From: Variovorax sp.
GTDB taxonomy: Bacteria > Pseudomonadota > Gammaproteobacteria > Burkholderiales > Burkholderiaceae_C
NCBI GenBank assembly: GCA_043755865.1
Contig: JAYUSD010000154.1
Span: 9,213 to 73,212, forward strand
DNA length: 64,000 nucleotides
Direction of reading: 5' to 3'
Each line of letters begins with the position of its first letter. The stretch's first letter is position 1. This document shows, one piece after another, positions 18,239-50,611 of this stretch. The position numbers and the translations under genes are program-made. The notes below the pieces were generated by a model, which did no database searches, was not told where the DNA came from, and saw only the letters and a list, made by a program, of their open reading frames with translations.

Positions 18239-19183
18239 ATGAACCAAGACATCTTTCTTCATCATTACCCCACTTCTCCTTTTGCCGAGAAGATCAGAGC
18301 GATCATGGGCTACAAGCAGCTCGCTTGGAAATCGGTCTTCCAACCCATGGTGATGCCCAAGCCCGATATGCAGACACTCACGGGCGGATACCGCAGAATT
18401 CCTATTTTGCAAATCGGCAATCAGATCGTTTGCGACACGATGCTGATGTGCGATGTGCTGGAGCACTTGAGCCCCGAGAAAACGCTTTATCCCAAAGGCT
18501 TAAAAGGCGCAGCTCGCACCGTAGCTCAGTGGGCAGACACGATGCTGGTCCCGGTGGCGATGGCCTATAACTTTCAGCCTGCGGGCGCAGCATTTGTCTT
18601 CAAAGATCAGCCTCCAGAAAATTTAAAAGCCTTTGCTGCTGATCGTCAAGCCATGCGAGGCGGCGCGCCGCGCATGAATCCTCACGATGCTGCAGCGACT
18701 TACAAAAGCTATTTGCGTCGCATTTCCAGCATGCTGGATGGTCAAGATTTTTTGCTTGGAAACCAGCCCAGCATTGCAGACTTCGCTGTGTATCACCCGC
18801 TGTGGTTTACTCGCGTGAAAACGCCGCCGCTGGCCAGCGTGTTAGATGCCACGCCTGCCGTGCTCGCATGGATGGACGCAATAGCCGCCTTAGAGCAAGG
18901 CGAGCCCAGCAAATCAAACACTACTGAATCGATAGCAGCCTGCACAATAAATACGCCGGCTAGCAGCCTGTTTGGTATTGAAAACACGTTTCAAGACGAA
19001 CACGGCATTCCTTTAGGCAGCGAAGTCACGATCCAAGCCGAGAGCTTCGGCCTAGAGCCCAGCAGCGGCCAGCTTGTCGCTGCTACACGTACGCGCTACA
19101 CCTTACGTCGCGTGGATGCGCGAGCCGGTGAAGTGTTTGTACATTTTCCGCGCATTGGTTTCATCTTGAAAAAGGCTGATTGA
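18239..19183 (+). CDS. Glutathione S-transferase family protein
   Basis: HHYPTSPFAEK, GGYRRIPILQIG...CDT and SIADFAVYH; start placed at the ATG at 18239. Confidence 0.9.
   Translation: MNQDIFLHHYPTSPFAEKIRAIMGYKQLAWKSVFQPMVMPKPDMQTLTGGYRRIPILQIGNQIVCDTMLMCDVLEHLSPEKTLYPKGLKGAARTVAQWADTMLVPVAMAYNFQPAGAAFVFKDQPPENLKAFAADRQAMRGGAPRMNPHDAAATYKSYLRRISSMLDGQDFLLGNQPSIADFAVYHPLWFTRVKTPPLASVLDATPAVLAWMDAIAALEQGEPSKSNTTESIAACTINTPASSLFGIENTFQDEHGIPLGSEVTIQAESFGLEPSSGQLVAATRTRYTLRRVDARAGEVFVHFPRIGFILKKAD
18920..18962 (+). repeat. 43-bp dispersed element copy, in frame in the GST gene
   Basis: ACTAC TGAATCG ATAGC AGCC TGCAC AATAAATAC GCCGGCTA. Confidence 0.88.
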
Positions 19184-19681
19184 ATGGTTTCTGCGGCTGC
19201 TTTGCAATGGCAATTCCTTCGCTTTGAAGGTTTGTCTGTGCATCAGCTTTATGCCTTGCTGCAGTTGCGCACAGAGGTCTTTGTGATGGAGCAAAACTGC
19301 GCTTTTCAAGACATGGATGGCGCGGATGACCAAGCCATGCATTTGCTCGGCACGCAGGGTGGCAAACTCTTGACCTACGCGCGCTGCTTTAATGCTGGCA
19401 TCAAATTCAAAGAAGCCAGCATTGGTCGTGTGATCACGCACACCAGCCTGCGCGGCACGGGTGCTGGCCATGCATTAATGCAGCAAGCCGTCAATTCGAT
19501 GAAGATAGTCTGGGGCGCACAGCCTATCCGAATTGGCGCGCAAGCTCGTTTAGAAAAGTTTTACACGCAACATGGCTTCGCTGTAGCCAGCGCACCCTAT
19601 ATCGAAGACGGCATCCCGCATATTGAGATGCTGCGCGCTAAAGTTTCAATTGGAGATTTCAATCATGATCACAAATTTTAA
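19184..19681 (+). CDS. elaA: ElaA-family GNAT acetyltransferase
   Basis: LYALLQLRTEVFVMEQNC, IGRVIT, GAQARLEKFY and EDGIPHIEM. Confidence 0.88.
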   Translation: MVSAAALQWQFLRFEGLSVHQLYALLQLRTEVFVMEQNCAFQDMDGADDQAMHLLGTQGGKLLTYARCFNAGIKFKEASIGRVITHTSLRGTGAGHALMQQAVNSMKIVWGAQPIRIGAQARLEKFYTQHGFAVASAPYIEDGIPHIEMLRAKVSIGDFNHDHKF

Positions 19682-48344: not shown

Positions 48345-49205
48345 CTAAAGCTCATATTTTTTGCCCAATGCAAGCAGATCAGGTGTGCCAATCAGCGCAT
48401 TGAGTTCGTCGAAGTTGATCATGCTGTTTTGCATGGCGAGGGTGCTGCCCTGCTGATGCAGGCTTTTGTAATAGTGCTGCAAAGTATGCGCCACAGCGCG
48501 GGCCGTGCCGCCTGGGAAGATCACGATTTTGAAGCCACACTCGCCGAGTTCGGTGGCGCTTTGGATCGGCGTTTTGCCGCCTTCCACCATATTGGCCAAC
48601 AGCGGGATGCGTTTGGCAAAGCGCTCGCAAGCAGCTTGCATTTGCTCAGGCGTGCGCAGGGCTTCGATGAAGAGGGCATCCACGCCGCACTCTAGATAAG
48701 CTTCTGCTCGATCAAGTGCGGCATCAAGCCCTTCGATAGCAAGCGCATCAGTGCGCGCCAAGATGAGCGTGCTCTCGCTGTGGCGGGCGTCCACAGCGGC
48801 ATTGAGTTTGCCGCACATCTCACCCGTGGAGACCACAGTTTTGCCGTCCAAATGGCCGCATCTTTTGGGAAAGCTCTGATCTTCGATTTGGATCATGGCT
48901 GCGCCCGCACGCTCGAAGCCGCGCACGGTGCGCTGCACATTGAGGGCGTTGCCAAACCCTGTGTCTGCATCCACGATCACAGGTGTGCGCACGCGCTCGG
49001 TGATGCGTGCGAGCGTGTCTTGCACCTCGGTGAATGTGGTGAGCCCGACATCGGAGCGCCCAAGCCGTGTGTAGGCAATCGAGGCGCCGGAGAGATACAG
49101 CGCCTCAAAGCCGGCTTGCTCGGCAACCAGAGCAGTGAGCGCGTCATACACGCCGGGCGCGAGCAGGGCGCTGGGTTGTTGCAAGCGTTGTTGAAGTGTT
49201 GTCAT
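48345..49205 (-). CDS. Isocitrate lyase/PEP mutase-family C-C lyase (PrpB/dimethylmalate-lyase-like)
   Basis: APGVYDAL, DADTGFG, IEDQSFPKRCGH and ARTDA; ATGA overlap with the upstream gene. Confidence 0.92.
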   Translation of the reverse strand: MTTLQQRLQQPSALLAPGVYDALTALVAEQAGFEALYLSGASIAYTRLGRSDVGLTTFTEVQDTLARITERVRTPVIVDADTGFGNALNVQRTVRGFERAGAAMIQIEDQSFPKRCGHLDGKTVVSTGEMCGKLNAAVDARHSESTLILARTDALAIEGLDAALDRAEAYLECGVDALFIEALRTPEQMQAACERFAKRIPLLANMVEGGKTPIQSATELGECGFKIVIFPGGTARAVAHTLQHYYKSLHQQGSTLAMQNSMINFDELNALIGTPDLLALGKKYEL

Positions 49206-50611
49206 GTGTTCACCATGCCAGCTGCCGCCTCGGCTGCTATTGCGCCGCCAGCGACTGCGCTGAGCAAGCCATTGCCAGATAAATAGCCCCAAACTTCGTT
49301 GCCCGATACGCCGCGCGCTGCGCCGCCAGCCGCGAGCAAATTGGGAAAGGGCTGGCCATTGCGCTGCAACACGCGGCATTGCGCATCAATATCCAGCCCG
49401 CCTTGGGTGTGAAACAGAGCGCCCGTGACCTTGACGGCATAGTACGGCGCATGCAATGCGCGTTTGGCTCGCGCAGAAGGTGTTGATACTGCATTTCTTA
49501 AGCCTTTTGGGCCACTGGCCGGCATAGAATATGCGCAGGATGCTATTAAATTCATAGTTTTGCATCCAATCAGTGCAGCCAGCGCCTCCACATCCGCACA
49601 GACCTTCACAGCACCGGCAGCTTCAGCTTCACAAAAATCAGGGAAGCTGCGGGCGAGTTTCAAAATCGGCGCATCAAAGACATTCCACGCCACGCCACCG
49701 GGCTGTGCGAGCACATGCACGGCCGCTTCAGAATAGCCTTGCGTCTCATCATGAAAGCGCTGGCCGTTTGCATTGACCTGCACGCCGCCTTCCATCATCA
49801 GCGCCCAGCTGATGAGCGCGCCTTGCGGAATCGCCCATGAGCCATGGCCTTGGTAGCCACCCAGATCGGCGAGGCTCGCTTGCAAAGCCTTGCCCCAAGC
49901 AATCGCACTGCCGTCGTTGCCTGCATGCCCTGCAAACAATGCATCCTTCATGTCGGGGAGCAGCTCGCGCACCATGTCTGCATTGCCGCCAAAGCCATTG
50001 CAAGCCAAGATGAGCGCATCGCAGCGCAGATGCTCCATGCTGTCGTCGGGGCGCTCATAGCCCACGCCCGTGATGCGCTGATCAGCATCTACCCAAAGCT
50101 CGCGCACGGTGGCTCGCGCGAGAATGTCTGCGCCGGCTCGTGTGGCCGCGCTTGCGAGCTGCGTTACCAAAGCCGCCCCGGTTTTTTGCGGCACAGCATG
50201 CATGCGCCGCACGCTGTGGCCGGGATACAAAAAGCCATCGAGCACAATGAATTGAAGCCCGTGCTGCGCTGCCAAGTGATCAATCACCAAGCCAATGCGT
50301 TGCGCGAAAGCAGCTACCAAGTGCGGCGCCGCTGTGCCATGCGCTTTGGCTTGAATGTCGTGTGCAAACTGCGCTGCGCTGTCTGATATGCCAGATTCGC
50401 GCTGCATGCGCGTGCCGGGCGCTGGAATGAAGCCAGACGATAAAGCGGTGGAGCCGGACGGCTGAGCATCGCGCTCAATCACCACACAATCAATACCTGC
50501 ATCGCGCAGCATGATGGCCGCAACCAGCCCGCATGCGCCTGCGCCGATGATGGCTACGGGCACATGCGGTGCTGCCTGCGGCGGGCATCCATGGCGAATA
50601 GTGGTATTCAT
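49202..50611 (-). CDS. FAD-dependent oxidoreductase (fumarate reductase flavoprotein / TcuA / KstD-like)
   Basis: IIGAGACG, GSTALSSG, LACNGFGGN, HTQGGL and YLSGNGLLSA. Confidence 0.88.
   Translation of the reverse strand: MNTTIRHGCPPQAAPHVPVAIIGAGACGLVAAIMLRDAGIDCVVIERDAQPSGSTALSSGFIPAPGTRMQRESGISDSAAQFAHDIQAKAHGTAAPHLVAAFAQRIGLVIDHLAAQHGLQFIVLDGFLYPGHSVRRMHAVPQKTGAALVTQLASAATRAGADILARATVRELWVDADQRITGVGYERPDDSMEHLRCDALILACNGFGGNADMVRELLPDMKDALFAGHAGNDGSAIAWGKALQASLADLGGYQGHGSWAIPQGALISWALMMEGGVQVNANGQRFHDETQGYSEAAVHVLAQPGGVAWNVFDAPILKLARSFPDFCEAEAAGAVKVCADVEALAALIGCKTMNLIASCAYSMPASGPKGLRNAVSTPSARAKRALHAPYYAVKVTGALFHTQGGLDIDAQCRVLQRNGQPFPNLLAAGGAARGVSGNEVWGYLSGNGLLSAVAGGAIAAEAAAGMVNT
49516..49558 (-). 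repeat. 43-bp dispersed element copy, in frame in the FAD oxidoreductase gene
   Basis: Reverse complement ACTAT GAATTTA ATAGC ATCC TGCGC ATATTCTAT GCCGGCCA. Confidence 0.9.

Follow-up and report, generated by a model that had tools for sequence, protein, structure and literature searches.

A dispersed 65-66-nucleotide motif read in several frames within enzymes of a freshwater Comamonadaceae genome and probably maintained at the DNA level

Results

Copies of the motif within five enzyme genes

The window analysed here is a 64-kb (64,000-nucleotide) stretch of contig JAYUSD010000154.1, from a freshwater Comamonadaceae metagenome-assembled genome (MAG) of 3.65 Mb and 54.7% GC whose relatives are MAGs labelled Variovorax, Polaromonas or Brachymonas. 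It carries copies of a dispersed DNA motif of 65-66 nt, detected by repeat finding and by scanning with a position-weight matrix (PWM), which in this window returned sixteen copies with strong scores (40-57 bits) and a single weak one. A first-pass annotation, made from the sequence alone, had described copies lying in frame within five enzymes, read in three different frames with every open reading frame (ORF) staying open. The description stands: each of the five copies is recovered by the PWM and lies within a long open frame with matching Pfam domains and orthologs.

The first of these genes (ORF 18179-19183, forward strand) encodes a GST-like protein in which the domains GST_N and GST_C are followed by a conserved C-terminal domain. 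Its copy of the motif (18921-18985, forward strand, core 18921-18962, 51.6 bits) is read from residue 248 on, past GST_C and in the linker to the conserved C-terminal domain, and encodes TTESIAACTINTPASSLFGIEN in a sense frame of the motif. The copy in trmB (26750-26814, reverse strand, core 26773-26814, 57.1 bits) lies in ORF 26210-27022 on the reverse strand, whose product carries the Pfam domain Methyltransf_4; it is read in the sense frame as a 23-residue peptide. The gene for GluQ-RS (ORF 31877-32917, reverse strand), whose identity is backed by a match to E. coli YadB (PDB 1nzj), carries a copy at 32359-32423 on the forward strand (core 32359-32400), so that the antisense frame is read, giving a 22-residue peptide. 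A renalase-like enzyme, a flavoprotein of the FAD amine-oxidase family (ORF 32994-34160, reverse strand), contains a copy at 33469-33533 on the reverse strand (core 33492-33533, 48.3 bits) that is read in a shifted sense frame as SLSKDEHSTQEIRRL. Finally, an FAD_binding_2 oxidoreductase (ORF 49202-50611, reverse strand) has a copy at 49493-49557 on the reverse strand (core 49516-49557), which falls within the FAD_binding_2 Pfam domain and encodes TMNLIASCAYSMPASGPKGLRN in the sense frame.

The consensus of the motif has exactly one stop-free frame on each strand, and the remaining four frames need a few stop-removing changes. The open sense frame is used by the GST-like protein, TrmB and the FAD enzyme, and the open antisense frame by GluQ-RS. 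In the renalase-like enzyme it is the second sense frame that is used, the consensus TAA and TAG having been mutated away (CTATCAAAAGATGAGC). Genome-wide, this frame is used by 20 copies, all of which, where inspected, show ATAGC changed to xGAGC. Some TrmB sequences of relatives had been flagged as containing one TAA, but only the natural stop or an upstream stop was seen in them, and none within the element.

The motif in the genome and the genus

An alignment of 913 genomic copies gives the consensus T[G/A]CTATtAATTtAATAGCACTCtGCGCAGaTTcTATGCCGGCTAnnnGCCnATTTnGCTTaAAAAt, with fixed blocks CTA, ATAGC, CGCA and GCCGGCTA followed by an A/T-rich tail. The unit consists of a 42-nt core and a tail of about 23 nt, slightly longer than the ~63 bp first supposed. 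The conserved blocks are free of indels between them in this alignment and, by our reading of the information profile, are spaced roughly 10-12 nt apart. The information exceeds 1 bit at about 27 positions, and the mean score of a copy is about 46 bits.

At a threshold of at least 20 bits the genome contains about 1,060 copies, against none in a reversed-sequence control, which corresponds to about one copy per 3.4 kb with a mean gap of 3.1 kb, on both strands and in both intergenic and intragenic positions. A strict pattern has 579 matches in the host genome, 289 forward and 290 reverse. The same pattern has between 11 and 518 matches in each of 14 other members of the genus, with more than 200 in nine of them, while among 26 other genera it has no match in 25 and a single match in one, no more than a control pattern. 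The control scan, together with the occurrence of orthologous copies in as many as 15 independent assemblies, led us to reject chance or an assembly artefact as the source of the copies. Full-text literature searches returned no relevant published account of a Comamonadaceae repeat, and none of an uptake sequence reported for this family.

To estimate how many copies lie within genes, we used a crude classifier that asks for an open frame and coding-like codon scores in that same frame over 50 codons on each side. By this measure at least 258 of about 936 scorable copies are inside ORFs and in frame, and about 70% of copies are not classed as intragenic. Of those in ORFs, the open sense frame accounts for 95, the open antisense frame for 113 and the remaining four frames together for 50. 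Random positions pass the classifier in 48% of cases and copies of the motif in 27.6%, so the depletion of the motif within genes is only mild.

The distribution of copies along the genome is more even than expected from a Poisson process. They avoid each other, with 0.9% of gaps shorter than 300 bp where 9.2% are expected. At the other end of the distribution, gaps of more than 15 kb make up 0.26%, against 0.79% expected under the Poisson model, although short contigs may hide some long gaps. Many genes end at or in a copy: the stop of ORF 44802-45380 abuts the element at 45378-45445, and genome-wide about 200 copies have a coding-like ORF that enters and stops inside them, the entry being at the tail side in 143 cases and at the head side in 59.

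Whole-unit insertion and overprinting of native codons

Alignment to orthologs that lack the motif indicates how the copies relate to the length of their host proteins. The segments in TrmB and GluQ-RS had been thought extra relative to typical homologs, and they are, by 22-25 residues. In TrmB, which has 22-24 residues more than repeat-free orthologs, the segment sits between an 11-residue motif with LLD further on and the motif EIGFGMG, and is in frame in 15 of 15 in-genus orthologs; eight orthologs from other genera have only FGRxAP at the site, and E. coli TrmB (3dxx) has 6 residues there against 30 in the host protein. GluQ-RS is longer by 22-25 residues than its counterparts from Hydrogenophaga, Polaromonas LjRoot131 and Rubrivivax. 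The renalase-like enzyme has about 23 extra residues, its matches to out-of-genus orthologs falling into two pieces separated by 3-8 residues in the ortholog and 26-31 in the query, and the FAD enzyme is 25 residues longer at the copy site than its homolog P0118. The GST-like copy, by contrast with these four, is nearly length-neutral, with a gap of 3-4 residues relative to out-of-genus orthologs in three other families (G027, G025 and G021). Those orthologs share residues with the segment (TE.I...A...TP), yet their DNA is unlike the motif.

The window has at least two further intragenic copies, and these two add no residues. An acyl-CoA dehydrogenase (ORF 13422-15392, forward strand) has a copy in its C-terminal domain that consists of the core only (15247-15288, forward strand, 48.2 bits). 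Its alignment to orthologs from other genera and another family (G027, G016 and G031) has no gap at the copy, native residues AG...A..YF.YELP are retained inside the motif, and the Pfam model Acyl-CoA_dh_C is aligned over its positions 2-123 of 124, spanning the copy. An EamA transporter (ORF 41202-42119, forward strand) has a copy on the reverse strand at 41837-41901 (scored at 41860, 40.0 bits) that is read in the antisense frame as LAGKDIALAAILSVA, a hydrophobic and probably membrane-spanning stretch, again without a gap relative to an ortholog 58% identical to it (G032). The gap-free alignment of these two copies means that the motif can overlie existing codons.

The first-pass annotation had proposed that the element inserts into genes, which tolerate it if three divides its length, and had predicted that ortholog alignments would reveal insertion lengths in multiples of three, of about 21 residues. 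The proposal fits TrmB, GluQ-RS, the renalase-like enzyme and the FAD enzyme, with their gains of 22-25 residues; it does not extend to the GST-like protein, with 3-4, or to the acyl-CoA dehydrogenase and EamA, with none. As judged from these alignments, copies appear to have arisen in two ways: by insertion of a whole unit of about 22 codons in loops or linkers, or by overprinting of codons that already existed.

Age of the copies and conservation at the DNA level

For all eight copies tested, the seven intragenic copies described above and one intergenic copy, a copy at the same site is present in every in-genus ortholog compared; the FAD gene had one such ortholog only (in G009), and some other copies were compared in five genomes only. 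The intergenic copy (16918-16981, reverse strand), which served as a control for orthology and dialect, occurs at the orthologous position in 9 in-genus genomes, in which the surrounding spacers differ in length and sequence. The GST-like copy is gap-free across 15 in-genus genomes, and the FAD ortholog of G009 likewise carries its copy without a gap. Sharing across the genus implies that the copies are ancient, with no sign of current mobility, and on the sequences compared they appear to predate the diversification of the genus. At some sites an element reaches further: most FAD homologs of other genera have a variant element at the same site, and both the GluQ-RS and the FAD sites show the same element layout with another middle sequence in genomes beyond the genus (labelled Polaromonas, Ottowia, Acidovorax and others).

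The species compared are distant, with an identity of 0.50-0.56 at third codon positions in the flanks of the copies. In TrmB, pairwise identity in the flanks is 0.83-0.87, 0.87-0.94 and 0.50-0.54 at first, second and third codon positions, respectively. Within the element the corresponding values are 0.63, 0.67 and 0.67, and the periodicity is gone. What orders conservation inside the TrmB element instead is the motif itself: at each of the three codon positions, sites that are constant across the motif family show higher identity than those that vary, with 0.79 against 0.58 at third positions. The GST-like copy behaves in the same way, its third positions having an identity of 0.78 where the family is conserved and 0.59 where it is variable, against 0.52-0.56 for third positions in the flanks. 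Within the host genome, intragenic copies and the remaining ones have information profiles that correlate at r = 0.94-0.96, and no codon phase shows relaxation. Nucleotide conservation thus follows the repeat consensus regardless of codon position, as had been predicted, at two loci and in genome-wide profiles.

Lineage dialects

In four members of the genus (G007, G003, G010 and G009) the strict pattern is rare, but matches to the motif's left half remain plentiful, at 108-401 per genome. The right block in these genomes reads TATAACGG(C/G)TA or TATAAGGG... instead of TATGCCGGCTA. At positions 35-36 of the motif, GC is found in 478 of 523 copies of G000, and AA in 58 of 100 copies of G007 among the matches listed. 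GCCGG likewise occurs in 465 of the 523 copies of G000, whereas the matches listed for G007 have AACGG or AAGGG in 53 of 100 and GCCGG in 25 of 100.

Copies fixed within genes follow the dialect of the genome in which they reside. The TrmB copies of G007, G010 and G011 each match their own genome's dialect. The GluQ-RS copy of G007 is also in dialect, its peptide PPVIY being encoded by the reverse complement of TATAACGGG, and so are the GST copies of G010 and G003, where the peptide SMPA has become SITG in G010. The intergenic copy has the AACGG/AATGG variant in G007 and G010. That hundreds of dispersed copies have shifted together, including copies fixed within genes, points to concerted evolution at the DNA level, and synonymous-site conservation together with dialect tracking argues that the motif is maintained at that level. 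The suggestion in the first-pass annotation that the DNA motif rather than the peptide is conserved is therefore well supported, by third-position conservation and by the change of the peptide with the dialect.

Protein context of the encoded segments

The AlphaFold models were built from shallow alignments and have a mean predicted local distance difference test (pLDDT) of about 66, so they are read cautiously. In the GluQ-RS model, pLDDT is below 50 at residues ~168-188, which is most of the element-encoded peptide (~171-192), between confidently predicted strands. In the FAD-enzyme model, the segment at first prolongs a helix, and pLDDT falls below 50 at residues 362-382. The TrmB segment, by alignment to 3dxx, lies in the linker ahead of the first strand of the methyltransferase fold. 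The predicted structures of GluQ-RS and the FAD enzyme and the TrmB linker are thus consistent with the earlier expectation that inserts map to loops.

Tail positions 51-53 of the motif read either TTT or AAA, and the two forms almost exclude one another. AAA is the form of sense-frame copies, and TTT that of antisense-frame and intergenic copies. This sorting by reading frame indicates a filter for tolerance at the level of the peptide.

Two of these proteins have further length changes. GluQ-RS has its own insert of 20 codons (32528-32587), with CxC on one side and YPGTC on the other, motifs that we take to be zinc ligands by comparison with the structure of E. coli YadB; the insert is absent in 15 of 15 aligned orthologs and has no repeat elsewhere in the genome, and the model has low confidence nearby, at residues 121-139. 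In the trmB gene of G007 (L004), a (CCACAG)n hexamer array encoding TATATATATVTVTA adjoins the motif copy on its upstream side, a second length change in the same linker.

Discussion

Maintenance of the motif

The explanation that we consider probable as a whole, though well short of certain, is that the motif is a dispersed unit of 65-66 nt, inserted or overprinted in its host genes and maintained at the DNA level, with the peptides as passengers. A copy would enter a gene either as a whole unit of about 22 codons or by an overprint in which the residues needed by the protein are kept. Copies within genes are read through into the host protein, in those frames of the motif that are free of stops. 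Once in place, a copy would then be held at the DNA level, all copies of a lineage shifting with the consensus (GCCGGC to AACGG), and the encoded peptide would be a passenger filtered only for tolerance. A trans-acting factor would presumably recognise the motif, which would be kept either by selection at each site or by a drive through biased copying, conversion or uptake, as for uptake sequences. Of the two, drive appears the more likely, because selection acting site by site at about 1,000 places ought to have little strength and yet amino-acid choice is overridden, and because lineage dialects are a hallmark of uptake sequences (PMC3630211, PMC2817400).

A more specific version of this explanation is offered tentatively, as one that may well be wrong. 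The motif may be a long (about 65 nt) self-tag of free-living Comamonadaceae, spread and homogenised by a sequence-specific drive through biased uptake, conversion or templated copying, and so represent a class that is new and intermediate between selfish repeats and uptake sequences. On the self-tag proposal, hundreds of protein sequences would have been rewritten, through 22-codon insertion and overprint, in lineage dialects.

Several points weigh against maintenance by such a recognition system. No recognising factor was found. The motif is, to our knowledge, five times longer than any known uptake sequence, and its whole-unit insertions are unlike a pure point-mutation drive, so that at least two processes are needed. 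The codon-position test covers two loci (TrmB and GST), and dialect tracking covers five genomes at four loci; copies in frame were counted with a crude codon-score classifier instead of gene calls; and all the genomes compared are MAGs of different species, which places recent gain or loss out of view. Length-neutral copies, furthermore, could in principle represent insertion followed by compensating deletion, although this is unlikely for the acyl-CoA dehydrogenase because native residues persist inside the copy.

Alternative explanations

The alternative that survives best is a selfish small mobile element, similar to the Rickettsia palindromic elements (RPEs), which entered genes and spacers as a unit and whose surviving copies within genes are those that happen to be in frame, stop-free and tolerated. 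The likeness among copies would then reflect descent and occasional gene conversion, with no function in recognition. Four of the five named copies add 22-25 residues, one unit length, frame use tracks which frames lack stops, and the inserted peptides are predicted to lie in low-confidence loops or linkers, all as this explanation would have it. We nevertheless regard it as unlikely. The motif has no terminal inverted repeats, its consensus ends CTATTAATTTAATAG... and ...GCTTAAAAAT not being inverted copies of each other, and direct repeats of 3-8 bp flanking the copies are at most in marginal excess over shuffled pairings (best 36 vs 18 of 769 copies), although a duplication of 2 bp is possible. 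A standard MITE (a miniature transposable element with inverted repeats) was rejected for want of inverted ends and of a target-site duplication of at least 3 bp. No stable hairpin was found, as the z-scores for folding lie between -2.3 and +1.4, most of them close to 0, and structures differ between copies; nor was there any long-range covariation among the 913 copies, or any Rfam match in the window. A structured RNA or DNA was rejected on these grounds, folding being no better than for shuffled sequences, and with neither a stable hairpin nor covariation the motif is not REP-like (repetitive extragenic palindromic) or RPE-like in structure.

Y1_Tnp genes are present in all members of the genus. 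The host genome has three such genes, resembling REP-associated tyrosine transposases (RAYTs) and located outside the window (C44:1862-2578, C54:7956-8825 and C142:21918-22790). The 238-aa Y1 gene is bracketed by inverted copies of GGGTCAGATCACATTTAAT, and ahead of the two 290-aa genes there are arrays of GCCGCAAGGGTCA-like units. A RAYT/REP link was rejected, since the immediate flanks of all three genes hold these repeats and not the motif. Carriage on plasmids was also considered and set aside, as the consensus has no PLSDB match. A selfish element is further at odds with the three length-neutral copies, with the mutual avoidance of copies seen in the deficit of short gaps, and with the finding that all eight tested copies predate the genus and yet keep their synonymous motif sites and track the dialect.

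Less probable again, in our judgement, is a host-beneficial cis-acting site, such as an array for a nucleoid-associated, topology or repair protein, under purifying selection at each copy and co-evolving with its binder. The 10-12-nt spacing of conserved blocks, the even spacing of copies along the genome, and the conservation of intergenic and intragenic copies alike across the genus agree with such a site, and the change of dialect fits co-evolution of site and protein. Weak selection on about 1,000 sites of small effect would, however, have to override the amino-acid choice of enzymes, as in the change from SMPA to SITG. In addition, copies show no orientation bias relative to genes, and their orientation is essentially independent of local GC skew, which rejects a KOPS- or Chi-like polarity; a consensus scan shows nothing consistent at the copies that would suggest a promoter or terminator role; and no candidate protein was identified.

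That the encoded peptide is itself a selected protein module, with the likeness of the DNA as a by-product, is most improbable and largely refuted by frame diversity and the codon-position results: the antisense frame does give a hydrophobic stretch in the probable membrane segment of EamA, but one and the same motif is used on both strands and in no fewer than three frames, the roughly 70% of copies not classed in ORFs have the same information profile, codon periodicity is absent at TrmB, and the peptide changes with the dialect.

Comparison with known repeats and uptake sequences

REP sequences are GTAG-headed palindromes, mostly extragenic and often paired. The motif resembles REP sequences and REPINs as a very abundant short repeat with vertical persistence and co-evolution within lineages. 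It differs from them in having no palindrome or hairpin, in the mutual avoidance of its copies, and in the unrelated repeats at the flanks of Y1_Tnp genes. MITEs carry terminal inverted repeats and target-site duplications, and intragenic copies are exceptional, whereas the motif has neither inverted ends nor duplications and at least a quarter of its copies lie inside ORFs. The small mobile ERIC and RU sequences of enterobacteria are occasionally found in frame within genes (Delihas 2007, PMC2759123), and the likeness of the motif to these and to MITEs is that of small repeats that are at times in frame within genes.

RPEs (Ogata et al. 2000, as summarised in PMC10969869) are palindromic, about 100-150 bp long and present in tens of copies in obligate intracellular bacteria. 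RPEs and the motif are both short and old, occur in frame in unrelated housekeeping genes where they add tolerated residues, and have no known mobilising enzyme. Insertion in frame with added residues, typical of RPEs, is found at four copies of the motif (22-25 residues), the three others adding 0-4, and the palindrome or stable hairpin of RPEs has no counterpart in it. Unlike RPEs, the motif is 65-66 nt long and non-palindromic, with about 1,000 copies in a free-living host, and it shows length-neutral overprints, lineage dialects and synonymous-site conservation.

The uptake signal sequences (USS) of Pasteurellaceae and DNA uptake sequences (DUS) of Neisseriaceae have cores of 9-12 nt, extending to about 30 nt when flanks are included, and are regarded as products of point mutation (PMC2817400, PMC3630211). 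With these the motif shares a kilobase-scale density, occurrence on both strands, frequent presence in coding regions without length change at tolerant sites, lineage-specific dialects and maintenance at the DNA level. Its core of 42 nt plus a tail is far from a core of 9-12 nt, and it differs also in occurring as whole-unit insertions of 22 codons, at four copies. In-frame repeats within genes have precedents in RPEs (PMC10969869) and intragenic ERIC elements (PMC2759123), and DNA-level motifs in coding sequence have theirs in USS and DUS. The motif family unites such features at an unusual length and scale: its insertions recall RPEs, its dialects and overprinting recall uptake sequences, and it is a member of neither group.

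If a drive at the DNA level does maintain a 65-nt motif in roughly one gene in ten, a genomic signal, instead of protein function, would determine part of the protein sequence variation in this group, which is abundant in freshwater and glacier streams, with consequences for the reading of alignments, indels and "linker" regions in Comamonadaceae. The motif would also provide a free-living counterpart to the puzzle of RPEs in Rickettsia, and a culturable one if the variants in MAGs labelled Polaromonas and Ottowia occur in cultured strains. The split between GCCGGC and AACGG within a single genus would offer a comparative route to the factor that reads the motif.

Other features of the window

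A second repeat, unrelated to the motif, lies in frame in the same acyl-CoA dehydrogenase gene (ORF 13422-15392). It is a GC-rich palindrome, CCGTTCGCCCTGAGCCTGTCGAAGGGC..., at 14541-14596, encoding about 20 residues that are absent in the orthologs of G014, G016 and G032, and it has about 13 further partial BLAST matches on other contigs of the genome. An ORF of 1,617 codons (27490-32343), if its first start codon is used, shares about 470 nt with the 3' part of the GluQ-RS gene; the true start of this ORF probably lies further downstream.

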